Shown piece after piece: positions 600 through 9,847 of a stretch of DNA of 10,629 nt. The stretch is from IMG/VR virus record IMGVR_UViG_2531839127_000027. One strand, 5' to 3'. The translations under genes were made by a program, and so were the position numbers. Every line of letters begins with the position of its first letter. The first letter of the stretch is position 1. This DNA is from a virus (Duplodnaviria > Heunggongvirae > Uroviricota > Caudoviricetes). Under the pieces are notes generated by a model, which ran no database searches, had not been told where the DNA came from, and saw only the letters and a list, made by a program, of their open reading frames with translations.

Positions 600-1013
600 T
601 CAGGCTGGCGGCACACAGCCGCCACCCATCCACTAATACAGAGATCTAACCATGAATACTGGATATTCTCCCGAACAAGGGCGGGGCTTCGTTCGTCCTG
701 AAAAACAGAATCTGCAAAATTTTGCCGAAATTATTCCGGTTATTTCCGGCCTTACTGGCGGGAGTGAAACCAATATTGTTAACGCCAGAGCGTTGCAGAT
801 GTTTGATGATAAAAAGGGAGTAAATTTAACTTACACCCCTGACGGCAATCAGAATATGAGCATTATCTCTGAGTCAGGTTTCTACAAACTAATAAAAACA
901 AAAAGCGCCCCGTTGCCGGAGCGCCTTTGTGAACAATTAACCTACTGCGCAAAAAATGAATCTGAGCAGTGGGATTATATCAACCGTGTGGCGAAGCGCC
1001 ACAATTGCCGGAT

Positions 1014-1048
1014 AACAGGCAAAACAAAGGCCACCCGCTACGGTGGCC
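1014..1048 (-). terminator. Candidate rho-independent terminator on the minus strand
   Basis: Perfect 7-bp stem GGCCACC (1029-1035) / GGTGGCC (1042-1048) with 6-nt loop. On the minus strand it is followed by a T-rich tract (complement of aacaggcaaaacaaa, 1014-1028). Confidence 0.35.
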
Positions 1049-1127
1049 CCTCGACACAAGCTACACGTTATCCCCAACGCATGAGCATCACCAACAATGC
1101 CACATTTGCGGCTGGTGGGCAATGTGA

Positions 1128-1316
1128 TCAGTCAGATTTGGTTCGTTCCAAGGTTTGCAACGAGAGCTTTTTCCTGTGCTCTTTAAGGAATTTCTCAAGA
1201 GCAAAAGCACATGGCGCGAATCTTTCTGATTCATGCTCTATCTTTCTGCGCCGTCTTTTCCGTGCCGGTGATAATGTTTTGGTCAATTCTTTATCGGTCA
1301 TTGTGTTGTCCTGCAT
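1128..1316 (-). CDS. Possible small basic protein (about 57-62 aa), downstream of the repressor candidate on the minus strand
   Basis: ORF MQDNTMTDKELTKTLSPARKRRRRKIEHESERF...; internal Met (MTDKEL) has an AGGA 8 nt upstream. Hydrophilic, plausible composition. No recognisable family. Confidence 0.25.
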   Translation of the reverse strand: MQDNTMTDKELTKTLSPARKRRRRKIEHESERFAPCAFALEKFLKEHRKKLSLQTLERTKSD

Positions 1317-1358
1317 AGCAATGCGCCGTAATACCTTACACCACGGCGCTGATGGTGA

Positions 1359-1664
1359 TTACTCTGGTTCTTTGGTCTTGCGACGCTGGAGTTCTTCGCG
1401 TGCAACGGTGACAAGCTGCCCGATTTCTTCCGCTGCTTTGATGCCGATTTGTTCGACCTTAGCCAGGGCATCCAGTGACGACACAAGGGGATTTTCTCCG
1501 CTGCCTTCTGCTTGGCGGCGGGCTATTTCTCCGCGCATGGCGGTTACGATAAATCCGGCATTGCTTTCGCCGTCCAGCTTAACGGATTCCATCCCTTGCA
1601 TAACATCTAGTGGGACTCTGACAGTTGTCAGTTGTGATTTTGCGTTTTTGTTAGCCGTTGCCAT
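1359..1664 (-). CDS. Putative ribbon-helix-helix (CopG/Arc-like) transcriptional repressor, 101 aa
   Basis: ATG at 1664 preceded on the minus strand by GGAG with 8-nt spacing. N-terminus QLTTVRVPLDVMQGMESVKL...SNAGFIVTAMRGEIARRQ fits a beta-strand/helix/helix RHH pattern. Divergent from the replication operon across an operator-bearing promoter region. Confidence 0.55.
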   Translation of the reverse strand: MATANKNAKSQLTTVRVPLDVMQGMESVKLDGESNAGFIVTAMRGEIARRQAEGSGENPLVSSLDALAKVEQIGIKAAEEIGQLVTVAREELQRRKTKEPE

Positions 1665-1685
1665 TTCTGAAACTCCTAATCATCG

Positions 1686-1763
1686 GTGTGTTTCAGTATA
1701 CACAAAAAAAGAAATACAAAAAGCCTTGACGTGTGTTTCATGCGCTCATAACATGAAACACAC
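1686..1763. promoter_or_regulatory. Operator region: perfect 12-bp inverted repeat GTGTGTTTCATG (1731-1742) / CATGAAACACAC (1752-1763) plus a third half-site GTGTGTTTCA (1686-1695)
   Basis: Read directly. The inverted repeat overlaps the spacer and -10 of the rightward promoter. The third half-site lies 45 bp upstream, next to a TATACT -10-like hexamer on the minus strand (complement of 1695-1700). Confidence 0.55.
1726..1754 (+). promoter_or_regulatory. Candidate sigma70 promoter for the rightward replication operon (TTGACG, 17-bp spacer, TAACAT)
   Basis: TTGACG at 1726-1731 and TAACAT at 1749-1754; about 100 bp upstream of the first operon ORF. Confidence 0.45.
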
Positions 1764-1861
1764 CAAAAGAATTGTTGAAATACAAAGAGCAACGCCCCGC
1801 AGTGCCGGAAACACATACGGGGCGTCTAACCACCAACGATAGCAAGATTATCGAGGCTGCT

Positions 1862-2720: not shown

Positions 2721-3008
2721 ATGAAAAAGAAAATTTCTGGCTTTACTGCCAGCGGCCCCGCTCGGCCTGAAATCCGCCCCGGCGATATTTTCCGGGATAA
2801 CTACGGCGGCACGATAACGATAAAAGACGTGGAAGAACGGCGCATCACCTACCGTCGTGAAGGCTACGACTATGACTGCGTGATGCCTGTTTATCAGTTC
2901 CGGCGTGATTTTAAGCTGGTGGGCCATCGTAAAGCCGTAAATCAGAAACGTGCAGCAAGCTATATCCGCAAAATCCGTGAAATGCTGGTCGCAGGGGGTA
3001 AGAAATGA
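2721..3008 (+). CDS. Small hypothetical protein (95 aa), translationally coupled to the primase gene
   Basis: ATG 2721 preceded by AGGAAA; stop overlaps the primase start (ATGA at 3005-3008). Confidence 0.5.
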   Translation: MKKKISGFTASGPARPEIRPGDIFRDNYGGTITIKDVEERRITYRREGYDYDCVMPVYQFRRDFKLVGHRKAVNQKRAASYIRKIREMLVAGGKK

Positions 3009-4753
3009 AACTGGCACCGAACGTAAAAAAACAACCACGCGGAATAAAGCACAAAGAAACAGAGGTAATTATTTTCGCGGGTAGTGATGCGTGGGCACAT
3101 GCAAAACAGTGGCAGGAACAGGACGGCCCCGCATCCGGCGATAATGTGCCGCCTGTGTGGCTTGGGCCAAATCAGCTTGCTGAACTTGATGCGCTGAAAA
3201 TTGTTCCGGATGGAAAAAAACGCGTAAGGCTGTACCAGGCCGGAGAACTGGATTTAGTGGAGATCAAAAAGATTGGTCAGAAGCTGGCGGCGGCAGGCGT
3301 ACAGGACGCAAATTTTTACCCCGAAGGAATGCACCACCACGAGCGGCAGAACTGGCGGCGCTATCTGAGTGCTGAGTGTGAAAATATTGCCGCAGGGCTT
3401 ACCATGCCGGAACAGAAAAAAGCACAACTTTCACAGATGGCAGACAGTGAACGGGCACAGCTTCTTGCTTCCCGCTTTGATGGTGTCTGCGTCCATGCCG
3501 AAAGTGAAATCGTTCACGTATGGCGCGGCGGGGTATGGTGTCCGGTCAGCACAATGGAACTTAGCCGCGAAATGGTGGCGATCTATTCAGAGCACAGGGC
3601 CACTTTCAGCAAGCGCGTAATCAATAACGCCGTGGAAGCGTTAAAAGTTATTGCCGAACCAATGGGCGAGCCGTCCGGCGATTTGCTGCCGTTCGCCAAT
3701 GGTGCGCTTGACCTGAAAACGGGGGAATTTTCCCCGCACACGCCGGAGAACTGGATCACCACGCACAACGGCATTGAGTACACGCTACCAGCACCAGGGG
3801 AAAACATCCGCGATAACGCGCCAAACTTTCATAAATGGCTTGAGCACGCAGCCGGAAAAGACCCGCGCAAGATGATGCGTATATGTGCCGCGCTGTACAT
3901 GATTATGGCGAACCGGTACGACTGGCAGATGTTTATTGAGGCCACCGGAGACGGCGGTAGCGGTAAAAGTACATTCACACACATAGCCAGCCTTCTGGCA
4001 GGGAAACAGAACACGGTAAGCGCTGAAATGACATCGCTTGATGATGCTGGTGGACGTGCGCAGGTTGTCGGGAGTCGTCTTATCGTCCTGGCTGACCAGC
4101 CGAAATATACAGGCGAAGGAACGGGCATCAAGAAAATCACAGGCGGCGACCCCGTGGAAATTAACCCGAAATATGAAAAGCGTTTCACGGCGGTAATCAG
4201 GGCGGTGGTGCTGGCGACCAACAACAACCCGATGATATTCACCGAACGGGCCGGAGGGGTGGCACGTCGTCGCGTGATTTTCCGTTTCGACAATATCGTC
4301 AGTGAGGCCGAAAAAGACAGGGAGCTACCGGAAAAGATTGCGGCTGAAATCCCCGTTATTATCCGCCGATTGCTGGCGAACTTTACCGACCCTGAGAAGG
4401 CACGGGCTTTACTACTGGAACAGCGTGACGGTGATGAAGCACTGGCGATAAAGCAGCAAACGGATCCAGTTATTGAGTTTTGCCAGTTCCTGAATTTTCT
4501 GGAGGAAGCGCGTGGCCTGATGATGGGCGGCGGTGGTGATTCCGTGAAGTACACAACCAGGAACAGCCTTTACCGTGTCTATCTGGCGTTTATGGCTTAC
4601 GCAGGCAGGACCAAACCGCTGAACGTAAATGACTTTGGCAAGGCTATGAAGCCCGCCGCGAAAGTTTACGGACATGAATATATTACGCGAAAAGTTAAGG
4701 GGGTAACGCAGACTAACGCAATAACAACAGACGATTGCGAAGCGTTTTTATAA
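3005..4753 (+). CDS. Replication protein: SF3/D5-type NTPase primase-helicase (P4 alpha-like C-terminal region), 582 aa
   Basis: Walker A GDGGSGKST (encoded near 3949-3975), a hydrophobic strand ending in aspartate (LIVLAD) that could be a Walker B, and a later VVLATNNNP stretch. GGGGG RBS before ATG 3005. Followed by an iteron cluster. Confidence 0.85.
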   Translation: MKLAPNVKKQPRGIKHKETEVIIFAGSDAWAHAKQWQEQDGPASGDNVPPVWLGPNQLAELDALKIVPDGKKRVRLYQAGELDLVEIKKIGQKLAAAGVQDANFYPEGMHHHERQNWRRYLSAECENIAAGLTMPEQKKAQLSQMADSERAQLLASRFDGVCVHAESEIVHVWRGGVWCPVSTMELSREMVAIYSEHRATFSKRVINNAVEALKVIAEPMGEPSGDLLPFANGALDLKTGEFSPHTPENWITTHNGIEYTLPAPGENIRDNAPNFHKWLEHAAGKDPRKMMRICAALYMIMANRYDWQMFIEATGDGGSGKSTFTHIASLLAGKQNTVSAEMTSLDDAGGRAQVVGSRLIVLADQPKYTGEGTGIKKITGGDPVEINPKYEKRFTAVIRAVVLATNNNPMIFTERAGGVARRRVIFRFDNIVSEAEKDRELPEKIAAEIPVIIRRLLANFTDPEKARALLLEQRDGDEALAIKQQTDPVIEFCQFLNFLEEARGLMMGGGGDSVKYTTRNSLYRVYLAFMAYAGRTKPLNVNDFGKAMKPAAKVYGHEYITRKVKGVTQTNAITTDDCEAFL

Positions 4754-5042: not shown

Positions 5043-5300
5043 ATGCACACATCAGGAAAATTTAACAATCAGAAGAAACCACATAACCGCGCCATTGACC
5101 TTACAGAGCACTGGCTGAGGATGGCGATAAAAATCATCGACCGCAACACGGGAGAGGGATACGCGAAAGCACATCCCGAACTGATAAGCGCATTCATGAC
5201 CACAGCGGCGGCAAACTTTGCCACGCTGACAGATCGGGAGATTGCCGAAGCGGAACAGGTGACAACCATCAACGTTAAAACCGGAGAGCATACAGCATGA
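5043..5300 (+). CDS. Hypothetical protein (85 aa), coupled to the downstream ssb-like gene
   Basis: ATG 5043 follows GAGGGGGG (12-nt spacing); stop overlaps the ssb start (ATGA at 5297-5300). Confidence 0.45.
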   Translation: MHTSGKFNNQKKPHNRAIDLTEHWLRMAIKIIDRNTGEGYAKAHPELISAFMTTAAANFATLTDREIAEAEQVTTINVKTGEHTA

Positions 5301-5719
5301 CAGCACAGATAGCGGCTTACGGGCGGCTGGTGGCTGACCCGCAGTTAAAGACCACCAGCAAGGGCACAACAATGGCGATGGCGAGTATGGCGGTTTCCCT
5401 GCCGTGCAGCCAGGCAGATGACGGAACGGCGACGATGTGGTTATCCGTCCTGGCGTTTGGCAGACAGGCCGACGCACTGGCCAGACACCATAAAGGCGAA
5501 CTGGTGAGCGTGGCGGGTAACATGCAGGTAAGCCAGTGGACAGGCCAGAACGGCGAAACGCGGCAGGGCTGGCAGGTCATCGCAGACAGCGTAATCAGTG
5601 CGAGAACGGCGCGACCGGGCGGCAAAAAAGGCCAGCAGGGCCAGGCTACTGACGCGCTGAACAGGGCAAAACAACAGGCGGGAAATGATGATCCGTACGG
5701 GGATAACATACCGTTTTAA
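5297..5719 (+). CDS. Single-stranded DNA-binding protein homolog (OB fold) with SSB-type C-terminal tip ending IPF, 140 aa
   Basis: By-eye alignment to E. coli SSB: GRLVADPQ / GNLGQDP, WLSVLAFGRQADAL / WHRVVLFGKLAEVA, KGELVSVAGNMQVSQWTGQNGETR / [24 protein letters not shown]. C-terminus DDPYGDNIPF resembles the SSB acidic tail DFDDDIPF. GGAGAG RBS. Confidence 0.75.
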   Translation: MTAQIAAYGRLVADPQLKTTSKGTTMAMASMAVSLPCSQADDGTATMWLSVLAFGRQADALARHHKGELVSVAGNMQVSQWTGQNGETRQGWQVIADSVISARTARPGGKKGQQGQATDALNRAKQQAGNDDPYGDNIPF

Positions 5720-5734
5720 GCAACGAGTGACAGA

Positions 5735-5757
5735 AGCCGGAACAATCCGGCTTTTTT
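5735..5757 (+). terminator. Rho-independent terminator after ssb
   Basis: Stem AGCCGG (5735-5740) / CCGGCT (5747-5752), loop AACAAT, then a T6 run (5752-5757). Confidence 0.6.
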
Positions 5758-5832
5758 ACGGGTCCTCCCGATGGAGTGGCCTTGCCACGGGGCGGGAGCG
5801 GCGCGGAAAAAGGCTGGTTTTTGCATTTTCAT
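5752..5832 (+). repeat. Copy 1 of an 81-bp duplicated segment (77/81 identical to 8288-8368), starting at the terminator T-tract
   Basis: Read directly; contains ACGGGGCGGGAGCGGCGCGG, which resembles the lambda cos-junction sequence ACGGGGCGGCGACCTCGCGG as recalled. Confidence 0.7.
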
Positions 5833-6018
5833 GGCGGCGGCAGCATGTGTGATAATTTATTGATAATTAAAAATTATTTCTGTTTTCACCTGTACAATAT
5901 TTTTTTCTCCATGTCATTAGACCAGTTTGCAATTAATTGAAATATATAAATAAATTTGTTTTTCACCTGCCAGATGGAGTTGCCTGTGCAAAATGTGTTC
6001 AGATGGCGGGATATTTAT

Positions 6019-6143: not shown

Positions 6144-6353
6144 GTGAATTGTATTAACGACCTGAACACAGGCGAGGTAAAAGGTGGTTCCGTTCATCTG
6201 GATGCGCAGACCGTTATGCGCCTTAAGCAGTACAGGATCGACCACATAAATCATCATCCTGACCAACCATTACCAGGTGTGGCGCAGATTGTCAGACACG
6301 CAGTTAACGCGTGGCTTGATAAGAATGGTTTTGCATCTGGGGGTGAGCAATGA
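6144..6353 (+). CDS. Small protein (69 aa, GTG start), possibly ribbon-helix-helix-like; first gene of the capsid operon
   Basis: GTG 6144 preceded by AAGAGGA with 7-nt spacing. Stop overlaps the capsid gene start (ATGA at 6350-6353). Pattern SVHLDAQTVMRLKQY...AQIVRHAVNAWL is strand-helix-helix-like. Confidence 0.5.
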   Translation: MNCINDLNTGEVKGGSVHLDAQTVMRLKQYRIDHINHHPDQPLPGVAQIVRHAVNAWLDKNGFASGGEQ

Positions 6354-8263
6354 ATCACTGGTACACCATTAAGGCGGCGGGTGTTCGCGGAGCGGCAGAA
6401 ATATCCATCTATGAAGAAATTGGCGGCTTCGGTATCACCGCGAAGCAGTTTGCGGAAGACCTGAAAGCCCTGGGCGATGTCTCACATATCGACCTGCGGA
6501 TCCATTCGCCAGGTGGTGACGTGTTTGAAGGCATCGCCATCTATAACCTGTTACGGAATCATCCGGCAGAAATTACGGTTTATATCGATGGTGTTGCGGC
6601 TTCAATGGCTTCGGTTGTCGCAATGGCTGGCGATCGTGTTGTGATGCCGGAAAACGCCATGATGATGATACATAAGCCGTGGGGTATCTCTGGCGGAAAT
6701 GCTGGTGATATGCGTGATTATGCTGATTTGCTGGATAAGGTGGAAACCGTGTTAGTCCCTGCTTATGCCAGAAAAACGGGCAAATCAGCACAGGAAATTA
6801 CCGCCATGCTGGAAGATGAAACCTGGATGGACGGGAAAGAATGCCTTAAGCACGGTTTTGCTGATGAATTGTTGCCATCTGTCACAGCAATGGCGCGAAT
6901 TGAATCGAAACGCACAGGAGATTTTTCACACATGCCGGAAACCATTAAAGGAATGATTACCCCGCCACAGGGAGCAGCCAATATTGCTGGTAATGAACAG
7001 AAGCGCATCAACGGAATAAGTGAAGTGTTTAGCCTGTTCGGCAGTCGTTACGACGGGATCAAAATGGCGTGCCTGGAAGATGCATCATGTACACCGGAGA
7101 TGGCCCGTGAAAAGTTGTTGAACGAGATGGGGCGCGAGTCCACGCCATCCAATAAAAATACCCCGGCTCATATTTATGCCGGTAACGGGAACATAACAGG
7201 CGATGCAATTCGTCAGGGGCTTTATTCCCGTCTCGGGTATGAACGCCCAGAGCGGGGAAATCCTTACGCGATGATGAGCCTTTTTGAAATGGCCCAGGCA
7301 TCACTAACGGATCGTGGTATCAGTGTTGGCGGTTTTTTAAATCGCTCGCAGGTCGTTAATGCAGCTTTCACACACAGCAGCAGCGATTTTTCTCACATTC
7401 TGGCTGGTGGTGCTGAAAAATCAGTACTGAAAGGCTGGCAGGACAGCGGCGAAACGTTCCAGAAATGGACGCGTACCGGATCGCTTTCAAACTTTCATGA
7501 AGCAAAGCGCGTTGGTCTGAATGGTTTTTCAAAGCTGGATAAAGTACCGGAAGGTGCGGAATATAAATACATCACCACCAGCGATAAAGGTGTACCTATT
7601 GCGCTGGCCACATACGGTAATATTTTTTCTGTTACCCGTCAGGCCATTATCAACGATGACCTGACCCAGTTAACTACAATCCCCATGGCGATGGGGCGTG
7701 CGGCCGCCAGAACAGTAGGTAATCTGGTTTATCTTCTGTTAACCAGCAACGGCAAATTTACGGATAGTAAAGCGTTATTCCATGCCGATCATAAAAATCT
7801 TATTGCGAAGGATATGGACATGGAGGGGCTTAACGAAGCCCGTAAGCTGATGCGACTACAGGAGGATGCCAACGGCGACTCCCTGAATATTACCCCCGCA
7901 TTTGTCCTGGCCCCCGCCGCGCTGGAGTCTGCCGCACATCGCGCCATTCTGTCATCGTCATCACTCTTTCCGGTTGATGGTGATGGCACTATCAATCAGA
8001 ACCCCGGTATCATTAACGTGGTGAAAGATATGGCTGAGGTTATTGTTGAGCCACGTCTTGATAAGAACAATAACAAGGAGTGGTATGTAGCCGCAGCGAA
8101 AGGGATGGACACGATAGAGGTCGCTTATCTTGATGGTATTGATACGCCATATCTTGAGGAGCAGGTGGGCTTTACTGTTGATGGTGTCGCCTGGAAGGTG
8201 CGCATAGATGCAGGTGTCGCGGCCCTCGATTATCGTGGACTACTGAAATCGAACGGAGCATGA
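6350..8263 (+). CDS. Fusion polyprotein: N-terminal ClpP-like (S14-type) prohead protease domain, linker/scaffold-like region, C-terminal HK97-fold major capsid protein; 637 aa
   Basis: N-terminal region carries ClpP catalytic-site motifs GVAASMAS (ClpP GQAASMG) and MIHKP (ClpP MIHQP). C-terminal about 330 aa has capsid-like features (FSVTRQAIINDD, TIEVAYLDG, GLLKS). GGGGTGAG RBS. Confidence 0.85.
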   Translation: MNHWYTIKAAGVRGAAEISIYEEIGGFGITAKQFAEDLKALGDVSHIDLRIHSPGGDVFEGIAIYNLLRNHPAEITVYIDGVAASMASVVAMAGDRVVMPENAMMMIHKPWGISGGNAGDMRDYADLLDKVETVLVPAYARKTGKSAQEITAMLEDETWMDGKECLKHGFADELLPSVTAMARIESKRTGDFSHMPETIKGMITPPQGAANIAGNEQKRINGISEVFSLFGSRYDGIKMACLEDASCTPEMAREKLLNEMGRESTPSNKNTPAHIYAGNGNITGDAIRQGLYSRLGYERPERGNPYAMMSLFEMAQASLTDRGISVGGFLNRSQVVNAAFTHSSSDFSHILAGGAEKSVLKGWQDSGETFQKWTRTGSLSNFHEAKRVGLNGFSKLDKVPEGAEYKYITTSDKGVPIALATYGNIFSVTRQAIINDDLTQLTTIPMAMGRAAARTVGNLVYLLLTSNGKFTDSKALFHADHKNLIAKDMDMEGLNEARKLMRLQEDANGDSLNITPAFVLAPAALESAAHRAILSSSSLFPVDGDGTINQNPGIINVVKDMAEVIVEPRLDKNNNKEWYVAAAKGMDTIEVAYLDGIDTPYLEEQVGFTVDGVAWKVRIDAGVAALDYRGLLKSNGA

Positions 8264-8269
8264 CAACAA

Positions 8270-8293
8270 GGGCGGCGACAGCCGCCTTTTTTT
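8270..8293 (+). terminator. Hairpin plus T7 tract after the capsid gene; stem sequence matches lambda cosN as recalled
   Basis: GGGCGGCGAC at 8270-8279 matches the first 10 nt of the lambda cosN overhang GGGCGGCGACCT (from memory). Stem GGCGGC (8271-8276) / GCCGCC (8281-8286), loop GACA, T7 at 8287-8293. Confidence 0.5.
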
Positions 8294-8368
8294 ACGGGTC
8301 CTCCCGGTGTGGTGTCCTTGCCACGGGGCGGGAGCGGCGCGGAAAAAGGCTGGTTTTTGCATTTTCAT
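8288..8368 (+). repeat. Copy 2 of the 81-bp duplicated segment (see 5752-5832)
   Basis: 77/81 identity; all four mismatches fall in one 9-mer (ATGGAGTGG vs GTGTGGTGT). Confidence 0.7.
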
Positions 8369-8521
8369 TCGTCATCATCATCTTTCTATCATATTGAATA
8401 TTAAGTGTTTTTATTTTTGGTATGTTAATTTCGCTTATTTTGTGTTCAACATACAGCGCGTTTTTTGACCTTTTTTGAAAGATATTTGCAAGATGCATGT
8501 TTAAAACATTCTGGAGCGGGT

Positions 8522-9007
8522 ATGGATCGGGAACTGAAAAATCTGATGCTGAACATTAACCAGCTGGCGGCGATAGCGGGAATATGTCGCCAGACTGCGG
8601 CGGCAAGGCTGAAAAATATCCAGCCAGCCGGAGGACATGACAAGCTGAAACTCTATCGGGTGACTGACATTCTGACCTGTTTTCTTGATCTTCCCGTTCC
8701 GGCATCACTGGAAGAAATGGAGCCACACGACCGTAAGGCCTGGTATCAGTCCGAACGTGAGCGCCTCAAGTTCGAACAGGAAACGGCGCAACTCATACCC
8801 GCCGATGATGTGCGAAAAGAGATGGCTATATGGGGAGAAATCGTAAGCGAGGAACTGGAAAAACTCCCCAGTATTCTGGCACGTGATGCTGGGCTTAAAC
8901 CGATGGCAGTAAACAGAGTGCAGTCAATTATTGACGATTTGTGTAATCAGATTATCAGCCGGATGGTGAAAAATGACGTAGTGAATGAGGTCGCAAAACA
9001 GGCATGA
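8522..9007 (+). CDS. Nu1-like terminase small subunit homolog (161 aa); candidate packaging-specificity or packaging-redirecting protein
   Basis: ATG 8522 preceded by GGAG with 5-nt spacing. N-terminus LNINQLAAIAGICRQTAAARLKN resembles the lambda Nu1 HTH region (KKQLADIFGASIRTIQNWQ) as recalled. Sits directly downstream of the cos-like region. The listed ORF starts at a TTG at 8465 without an RBS. Confidence 0.7.
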   Translation: MDRELKNLMLNINQLAAIAGICRQTAAARLKNIQPAGGHDKLKLYRVTDILTCFLDLPVPASLEEMEPHDRKAWYQSERERLKFEQETAQLIPADDVRKEMAIWGEIVSEELEKLPSILARDAGLKPMAVNRVQSIIDDLCNQIISRMVKNDVVNEVAKQA

Positions 9008-9291
9008 TAATGACCGAATCTGAAATACTGCGATTAATCCGCCGTGCTGGTGGAATCAGCCAGCTGGCTGACGAACATGCCAAGCAGCCGGATACAGTCA
9101 CCGCTGAAAATTACGCGCGTGTGGTGGCTGAGGTGATGCACCGTGACGGTATTGAGTTTAACGGCGTGGATATGCGCAATATACGCACCAGAGTTCTGGA
9201 GATGTTGTCATACCGTCGCCGCGTGCAGATGTACCAGGAGAAAGAAAAAATTACGTACCGGTGGAAGAAGCCGGAGCGGTTACGACGTTAA
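9004..9291 (+). CDS. Hypothetical protein (95 aa), translationally coupled to the terS-like gene
   Basis: ATG 9004 overlaps the terS stop (ATGA); alternative ATG at 9010. Hydrophilic, basic C-terminus. No family recognised. Confidence 0.45.
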   Translation: MIMTESEILRLIRRAGGISQLADEHAKQPDTVTAENYARVVAEVMHRDGIEFNGVDMRNIRTRVLEMLSYRRRVQMYQEKEKITYRWKKPERLRR

Positions 9292-9332: not shown

Positions 9333-9823
9333 AAAAAAGACGGTATTTAAATCGGGTGGTGTTTAATACCCCCAGGGGGATAGAAATCCCTACACCTCAT
9401 TGCTTATGGGACCGCCCGCCTACCCTTGTTCACATCGCCGCAGGTTCGAAAACTTTTTTTGGGAAGGTGTGCACGGGATTGATAGATGAGGTCTATCTAT
9501 AAAAAATCACAAAATCCGCGCCATTGCTGGATCCGCCAAAAATCCCCCACCTTACGGCAGACAAAGAAAACGCGAATTATGGGCCTGTTGCAGAGAAAAA
9601 AGGTCTCACTAGTTTTGCGCACCCTAGCATCGAGGTTCGTCAGCCTCCCATCAGCAACCAGATAACTAATCTCGCTGGTGGGCATGATGCCGATATGGGG
9701 ACTTCCATAACGGTTTATCCGTGATCATCCACCAGCTTCATGGCGGATAGCCGGAAAATGATAACGGTATAGCCCGTCGCTTGTGTCTATTTGTTCCGCA
9801 TTGTTGCATACAGTGCACCGAAC

Positions 9824-9847
9824 GGTGTAGTTAATGGTGTAGTTAAT
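9824..9847. repeat. Perfect tandem duplication of the 12-mer GGTGTAGTTAAT in the region upstream of the Smr gene
   Basis: Read directly (9824-9835 and 9836-9847). Confidence 0.4.

Follow-up and report, generated by a model that had tools for sequence, protein, structure and literature searches.

The stretch of DNA analysed here, the 10,629-nt IMG/VR virus record IMGVR_UViG_2531839127_000027 (hereafter the window), is, as judged from its sequence, most of an ~11-kb Escherichia coli phage-inducible chromosomal island (PICI) of the EcCICFT073 lineage. The island is a near relative of this Rpp prototype in which Rpp has been replaced by copies of the packaging site cos of two helper lineages and by a domain-chimeric small terminase subunit (TerS) of the cos type. 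In the reading that we favour and regard as probable, the packaging module has been swapped for one matched to phages of the cdtI/mEp460/phi458 type, and one of the cos copies, cos-b, together with the island TerS recruits the large terminase subunit (TerL) of the helper. The strategies described for phage satellites in the literature consulted are use of the cos site of the helper (P4 and the cos-type Staphylococcus aureus pathogenicity islands, SaPIs), a satellite TerS for headful packaging (pac-type SaPIs), Rpp (EcCICFT073) and provision of the whole head and terminase (capsid-forming PICIs, cf-PICIs). EcCICFT073 is mobilized via cos sites by lambdoid helpers (PMC6092414, PMC6739421); both of its cos copies are experimentally functional, and the effect of Rpp is that the helper TerS is directed to the cosB of that island (PMC6092414, PMC6739421, PMC9026076).

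The cos site that lies directly upstream of the terS gene (8522-9007), here called cos-b, spans 8294-8521 and contains cosQ, cosN and cosB in the layout of lambda, as seen when positions 8230-8530 are aligned with the joined ends of lambda and with mEp460, phi458 and mEp460_4F5; cdtI was compared as well. A preliminary description of this DNA had placed a lambda-type cos immediately before a small terminase homologue. The alignment confirms this arrangement and the homology to lambdoid cos regions, but it locates cosN at 8326-8337 and not at 8270. The sequences are collinear, reading ACGGGTCCT..CCGGTG...ACG, then the 12-mer of cosN and then CGCGG. The cosQ heptamer GGGTCCT (8296-8302, + strand) is the same as that of lambda and begins 30 nt before the predicted top-strand nick, which is the lambda spacing. 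The predicted 12-nt 5' cohesive end, GGGCGGGAGCGG (8326-8337), is derived from alignment to lambda, mEp460, phi458 and cdtI, with the top strand expected to be nicked after 8325 and the bottom strand after 8337. This 12-mer is the same as that of mEp460, differs from that of cdtI at one base and matches the lambda cosN at seven of 12 bases, with the flanks ACG and CGCGG identical; its two-fold symmetry extends over 8 of 16 bp, compared with 10 of 16 in lambda. Two places in the window fit the pattern GGGTCCT-N23-GGGCGG, where 0 are expected. Counted from the first base of cosQ, the nick is 30 nt away in both island copies and in lambda, and 29 nt away in prophage L019, in phi458 and mEp460 and in islands L016/17, owing to a one-base difference (CCTTGCC versus CC-TGCC).

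The cosB of cos-b (8338-8521, + strand), designated type 1, is 86-98% identical to that of prophages L019/L078. Positions 8338-8368 belong to the conserved core, and type-specific sequence begins at ~8370. Taken as a whole, 8294-8521 is 77-80% identical to the cos region upstream of terS in phi458, vB_EcoS-569R4 and mEp460. The AT-rich strings that had been likened to the lambda cosB region and its sites for integration host factor (IHF) are present, as TTCGTCAT at 8368-8375 and TTAAGTGTTTTTATTT at 8401-8416, and have lambda counterparts at 67 (TTCGTCAT) and 78 (TTAATGTTTTTATTT). The AT-rich I1-like motif at 8401-8416 lies at +76-91 from cosN, compared with +78-92 in lambda. A block of ~45 nt before the terS ATG (8477-8530, CGCAAGATGCATGTTTAAAACATTCTGGAGCGGGTATGGATCG) is near-invariant in cosB types 1 and 2, in islands and phages, and the cosB sequence flanking it diverges; possible roles of the block are as a promoter, as a signal for translation or as a shared site for protein binding. 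The only R-like candidate in cos-b, a 17-nt inverted repeat (8379-8395/8479-8495, 71% complementary), was rejected as a specificity element because its second arm falls in a block that is conserved across cosB types.

The second copy, cos-a, abuts a terminator that follows the gene for the single-stranded DNA-binding protein (SSB; terminator at 5736-5757, + strand, GCCGGA-ACAA-TCCGGC and T6), and a similar hairpin precedes cos1 of EcCICFT073. Its core (5760-5801, + strand) consists of cosQ GGGTCCT at 5760-5766 and cosN GGGCGGGAGCGG at 5790-5801, again with the 30-nt spacing of lambda from cosQ to the nick, and the cosQ/cosN core is exact in both island copies. An 81-nt direct repeat (5752-5832 and 8288-8368, 95% identical) spans the T-run, cosQ, cosN and the conserved flank. 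The cosB of cos-a (5802-5997, + strand) is of type 3, the cdtI type, and carries two ...TTTTCACCTG repeats and an exact IHF consensus at 5853-5865 (- strand, +64-76). Positions 5833-5997 are 92% identical to record positions 44-208 of phages cdtI, Tritos and HannyBb, which are their cosB. This homology ends just inside the start-codon region of the phage terS, and terS is absent downstream. The two cos copies are in direct orientation, lie 2536 bp apart and flank the capsid gene; if both were cleaved, the segment with the capsid gene would be cut out or duplicated. The arrangement with two cos copies is found again in islands L054, L059, L063, L066, L140, L166 and L168, and L016/17 are among those with a single cos.

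The 161-aa protein encoded at 8522-9007 matches Pfam DUF1441 (PF07278, 6.4e-36) and phrog_141, annotated 'terminase small subunit' (2.4e-57). Its earlier designation as Nu1-like holds as a remote relationship: lambda Nu1, a member of phrog_57, cross-hits phrog_141 at 5.6e-8 and the window protein cross-hits phrog_57 at 1.4e-7, and from these reciprocal hits DUF1441/phrog_141 and the Nu1 family are remote homologues. The profile searches thus place the protein in small-terminase families, but not in Phage_Nu1 itself (PF07471), which gave no match even at E ≤ 10 (lambda Nu1 control, 2.5e-100); BLASTP against Nu1 gave E = 2.3. The AlphaFold model (pLDDT, the predicted local distance difference test score, of 77) shows a beta-alpha-alpha-beta-beta-alpha winged helix-turn-helix (HTH) at residues 1-55 followed by helices. 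Structure searches returned only weak MerR-type matches and nothing significant, a sequence search of the PDB returned nothing relevant and no match to RppC, and BLASTP against CFT073 RppA (c1503) gave E = 2.8, indicating that the two are unrelated.

Comparison along the gene indicates that terS is a chimera with its breakpoint at ~8800. The N-terminal part (aa 1-94; 8522-8803, + strand), which comprises the predicted winged HTH (aa 1-55) and a conserved helix, is identical at the amino-acid level to the TerS of L019/L078 (P0011). The C-terminal part (aa 95-161; 8804-9007, + strand) belongs to a satellite-specific lineage, ends in SRMVKNDVVNEVAKQA and is without the phage acidic tail. Nucleotide identity to prophages L019/L078 is 86-100% from 8294 to ~8800 and 48-68% beyond. 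In lambda Nu1, the region equivalent to this C-terminal part has been proposed to bind TerL. The mosaicism was compared over 201 cos instances from IMG/VR, metagenomes and genomes. Throughout, the cosQ-cosN core is near-invariant, and beyond ~+45 there are at least four cosB types, each tied to one TerS N-terminal type. The satellite C-terminus is found only before an open reading frame (ORF) of 93-96 aa and never before TerL, and the phage C-terminus only with TerL; in phages this part is strongly conserved across genera and has the acidic tail, and the gene overlaps terL. The type-1 cassette accounts for 43 island instances and is rare in the sampled phages, which mostly have types 2, 3 and 4.

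The same satellite C-terminus is found behind other N-termini. Type 1 is the cassette of most islands; in L016/17 and in P0006 the satellite C-terminus is joined to a type-2 N-terminus with a type-2 cosB, and in P0004 to a chimeric N-terminus. A third type of TerS C-terminus is seen in P0090 and P0109 (…VQVLETWPDRLERDRGWTASQLNEVQIVVDEIRDTLEKAVI.CCDEADM, 158 aa; P0109 occurs on 744 contigs), and in P0090 it is joined to a type-2 N-terminus, which is further evidence that the two halves assort independently. Of 5,426 complete E. coli genomes, 195 (~3.6%) have the satellite C-terminal part at ≥95% identity (nucleotide identity 95-100%), with up to three island-type terS copies per genome. Loci L013-L015 carry the same capsid-cos-terS-94aa module on another backbone, in which an AAA_25 protein replaces the D5-type primase, and at a different insertion site, which shows that the packaging module moves from one PICI backbone to another. 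In GCA_031665325.1, locus L016 consists of tandem PICIs, the 93-aa ORF of one being followed by a second integrase and AlpA, and a further copy of the module (L017) lies elsewhere in the genome.

The type of cos represented by cos-b is that of cdtI/mEp460-type lambdoid phages. The GenBank records of cdtI (AB285204) and Tritos (OV696610) both start at the base homologous to 8326/5790 (GGGCGGGAGCGT...), and the cdtI record ends in ...GGGTCCTTCCGGTGGGGTGGCCTGCCACG. In these phages cos is followed by a DUF1441 TerS, a 700-aa TerL with GpA ATPase and nuclease domains, a 70-aa ORF, the portal and a protease::capsid fusion. The TerS of cdtI has a different N-terminal domain and a phage-type C-terminus. 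The TerL proteins of cdtI (L090) and L019 cannot be aligned over their first ~20 residues; beyond residue 20 their identity is 88%. The first ~20 residues of lambda gpA are its Nu1-binding region, and the difference at the TerL N-terminus may co-vary with the C-terminal tail of TerS. The linear record of mEp460_4F5 (LR595868.1, L002/L008) starts 5 nt to the left of the predicted nick and is missing 3 nt of cosN (GGGCGGGAG---CGCGG); this probably arose during assembly at the physical ends, and the record is not decisive. Several contigs break 20-21 nt from the predicted nick, a pattern that resembles a k-mer artefact of assembly at a repeat shared between sequences. Nothing on the 12-mer GGGCGGGAGCGG was found in the literature. 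In NZ_CP085069.1, which carries the exact island, there are three cos-like places, two of which are those of the island, and the third may be a resident helper-type prophage.

The island is inserted between abgR and smrA of the E. coli chromosome and has a size of ~11.06 kb between 26-bp direct attachment (att) repeats, as read on locus L007; attR lies at 9822-9847 (+ strand, CGGTGTAGTTAATGGTGTAGTTAATT), and the other copy is upstream of int, outside the window. The gene order in annotated copies is int, AlpA, a YlcI/YnfO protein, an Icd-like protein, DUF4222, a D5-type primase (3005-4753), an 85-aa ORF and SSB (5297-5719). The right part consists of a 637-aa protease::capsid protein, a 258-nt intergenic region, the 161-aa DUF1441 protein and a 95-aa ORF, followed by chromosomal smrA. 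The 637-aa protein (6350-8263, + strand), a ClpP-type prohead protease fused to the major capsid protein, is encoded between the two cos copies and represents a separate satellite lineage, its best phage homologues being only 57% identical. The 95-aa ORF (9004-9291, + strand) belongs to the backbone, overlaps the terS stop and is 75% identical to the last ORF of EcCICFT073. No large terminase, portal, tail or lysis genes are present in the ~11.06-kb island, in agreement with the preliminary description as regards TerL. The combination of int, AlpA, D5-type primase and SSB, the att repeats and the size are those of a Gram-negative PICI of the EcCICFT073 type. As for the components of a cf-PICI, the island has no portal, head-tail connectors, HNH or TerL of its own, and only the protease-capsid fusion and TerS were found. 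The PICI core used by SatelliteFinder comprises int, alpA, pri-rep, a capsid component and a small terminase (de Sousa 2023, PMC10085698); these five components are the gene set of the island, and its gene content is therefore already catalogued. No description of these cos sites, of the dual cosB types or of the chimeric TerS was found in the literature, including PMC10085698.

The island shares with EcCICFT073 its backbone and gene order (int-alpA-YlcI-Icd-DUF4222-primase-85aa-SSB ... 93-aa ORF, the primase being 91% identical), two cos copies, an upstream capsid homologue and the absence of TerL. In EcCICFT073 a terminator hairpin is followed immediately by cos1 and this in turn immediately by rppA, and cos-b occupies the same place before terS. 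The two islands differ in the packaging region, where the lambda-type capsid/decoration/Rpp module is replaced here by the protease::capsid fusion, the two cos copies and the TerS homologue. CFT073 has the exact lambda cosN GGGCGGCGACCT and a private cosB, whereas the window has GGGCGGGAGCGG and cosB types copied from phages; the cos copies of CFT073 are inverted and flank rppA, whereas those of the window are direct and flank the capsid gene; and Rpp of CFT073 is a short mimic of the TerS DNA-binding domain, whereas the window gene encodes a near full-length DUF1441 TerS.

Compared with lambda, the cosQ heptamer and its 30-nt spacing, the ACG/CGCGG flanks, the I1-like motif at ~+76-91 and the position of terS at ~+196 are alike, whereas cosN matches at only 7/12 bases, the lambda R sequences are absent from cos-b and TerS belongs to DUF1441 and not to Phage_Nu1. 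Phages cdtI, Tritos, mEp460 and phi458 and the related prophages have near-identical cosQ/cosN, and the cosB of cos-b is near-identical to that of L019/L078 and the cosB of cos-a is 92% identical to that of cdtI/Tritos. In these phages, however, terS encodes an acidic tail and overlaps the gene for the 700-aa TerL, whereas in the island residues 95-161 are diverged and the 95-aa ORF follows. The pac-type SaPIs also combine a satellite-encoded TerS homologue with the helper TerL, which is the logic proposed here (10.1101/2022.09.08.507074), but they package by headful (pac), belong to Staphylococcus, use an unrelated TerS family and encode Ppi; the present island is of the cos type and no Ppi equivalent was identified in it. 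SaPIbov5 and P4 likewise carry the cos of the helper, and SaPIbov5 also encodes a capsid homologue, Ccm (PMC8569155, PMC5052747), which redirects capsid size (PMC8569155). Neither has a satellite TerS, and P4 uses Sid and not a capsid homologue.

As the cos is a copy of a real lambdoid phage cos, hijacking of the helper TerL is its natural reading. The preliminary description had suggested as much; the helper, however, would be of the cdtI/mEp460/phi458 type with a GpA-type TerL and not lambda. According to the scheme that we favour, the helper TerL would nick the island DNA at 8325/8326 and 8337/8338, and possibly at 5789/5790, to give 12-nt 5' ends of sequence GGGCGGGAGCGG, and packaging would proceed to the right, across terS, until a later cosQ/cosN of the concatemer is reached. 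The island TerS would recognize the type-1 cosB via its N-terminal winged HTH, which is always matched to the adjacent cosB type, and its diverged, satellite-specific C-terminal domain would recruit the helper TerL. The island would in this way gain a packaging address that is independent of the helper TerS, with the logic of the SaPI TerS in a cos system, and helpers of the cdtI type would be able to use cos-a, with the TerS that they encode, to package the island. The rarity of type 1 in the sampled phages and its dominance in islands favour such a private address, and the hydrophobic skeleton of the satellite C-terminal domain is conserved.

Several observations weigh against this scheme. 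Prophages L019-21, L078, L085 and L095 carry the same cosB and the same TerS N-domain; with such helpers the island TerS would add no specificity, which weakens a strictly private address. The satellite C-terminal domain differs from the phage domain at near-invariant positions and is without the acidic tail, and it may not bind TerL at all. In the cosB of cos-b no IHF consensus was found with up to one mismatch allowed, and the search for R repeats or TerS-binding sites returned no convincing ones. A terminator at 8271-8293 sits between the capsid gene and terS. In scans for the exact core, none of the contigs starts or ends at the predicted nick (68 loci in IMG/VR and at least 120 in metagenomes), and no published end mapping for the cdtI, Ayreon or Tritos group was found in the literature, the ends of Ayreon not having been determined. 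A strict Rpp-style model with a private cosB was rejected, since prophages with identical cosB and TerS N-domain exist. A broader strategy with two packaging addresses within a single terminase family can be put forward tentatively, and we hold it to be somewhat doubtful. In this strategy cos-a would mimic cdtI-type helpers, and cos-b with TerS would form a portable cosB/DNA-binding cassette swapped by recombination between satellites and phages, with the old, private TerS C-domain and the private capsid protein (both ~55-57% identical to phage) capturing the helper TerL and portal for satellite-built heads.

The main rival explanation, which we consider unlikely, is that the helper TerS-TerL alone uses both cos sites by mimicry and that the island interferes with its helper, its TerS acting as an inhibitor and selectivity coming from its capsids, which would be too small for the helper genome. 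The island TerS would then occupy cosB or form mixed oligomers that engage TerL poorly, and would functionally resemble Ppi or Rpp. TerS need not add specificity where the island cosB and N-domain are identical to those of some phages, and the divergence of its C-terminal domain at near-invariant positions and the missing acidic tail fit such a role. So do cos-a, which if functional at all works without the island TerS, and the retention of an island capsid gene 57% identical to phage, comparable to Ccm of SaPIbov5 (PMC8569155). However, an inhibitor acting on the same cosB would also block packaging of the island, conservation of the hydrophobic skeleton suggests that the C-terminal domain folds and binds a partner, and the abundance of the type-1 cassette in islands (43) together with its rarity in sampled phages fits a private address better. 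That the cos copies and terS are instead a decaying remnant of prophage recombination with no role in transfer is suggested by the resemblance of cos-a to a phage cos with terS deleted, and appears very improbable to us: the ORFs are intact, ~195 genomes share the TerS C-terminal part with a nucleotide identity of 95-100%, the module is found with different replicase backbones and att sites, the cosQ/cosN core is exact in both copies, and the backbone is closely related to that of an experimentally mobilized PICI.

The preliminary description had taken another sequence for cosN, namely the 10-mer GGGCGGCGAC at 8270-8279 (+ strand), which is indeed present and equals bases 1-10 of lambda NC_001416. 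A lambda-type cosN at this place, cut by a lambda-like Nu1/gpA terminase, is scarcely credible in our view, even though 10 of 12 bases match lambda, the 10-mer has one match in the window against 0.03 expected from shuffles (at least one match in 5 of 200 shuffles) and relatives such as EcCICFT073 carry an exact lambda-type cosN. The bases in question form the 5' arm of the stem of the intrinsic terminator of the capsid gene (8268-8293, + strand; stem GGCGGC/GCCGCC with loop GACA at 8271-8286, T7 at 8287-8293), and the predicted cosN lies 56 nt downstream. The hairpin begins 7 nt past the stop codon of the capsid gene and has an RNA folding energy of -16.5 kcal/mol (z = -3.0); the same stem was recovered in a scan. 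No cosQ is present 30 nt upstream of GGGCGGCGAC, no CGCGG flank follows it, and lambda R3 is absent at +50-65. In related islands the stem is kept and base 10, in the loop, varies to give GGGCGGCGAT and GGGCGGCGAA, and the phages compared are without the hairpin altogether. Across the 5,426 E. coli genomes, matches to the cos regions of prophages begin only at ~8294, and the hairpin is covered only by island-type matches (≥90% identity). The terminator stem, the loop variation, the absence of the hairpin in phages and the start of phage homology all argue that GGGCGGCGAC is not a cos element, and the adjacent TerS lies outside the Nu1 family.

If the favoured reading is true, packaging specificity (cosB and the TerS N-domain) and coupling to TerL (the C-domain) would be separable and traded by satellites and phages, the island and its relatives would offer a natural system for mapping the TerL-contacting part of a lambda-like TerS, and a wider set of prophages would be expected to mobilize E. 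coli islands. If the strategy with two addresses is true, the island would be an intermediate between classical PICIs and capsid-forming PICIs and the first satellite of the cos type to encode a functional TerS, pointing to an arms race that proceeds by TerS domain swapping.

An Rfam scan of the whole window gave zero family matches. Another IMG/VR contig, UViG_2531839128_000030, has the same size and the same cos positions as the window. The 396-aa ORF at 652-1842 (+ strand) looks spurious, its translation being of low complexity and absent from the RefSeq annotation; the true gene at that place is a 101-aa ORF of the YlcI/YnfO family at 1359-1664 (- strand; phrog_6522, 1e-63).

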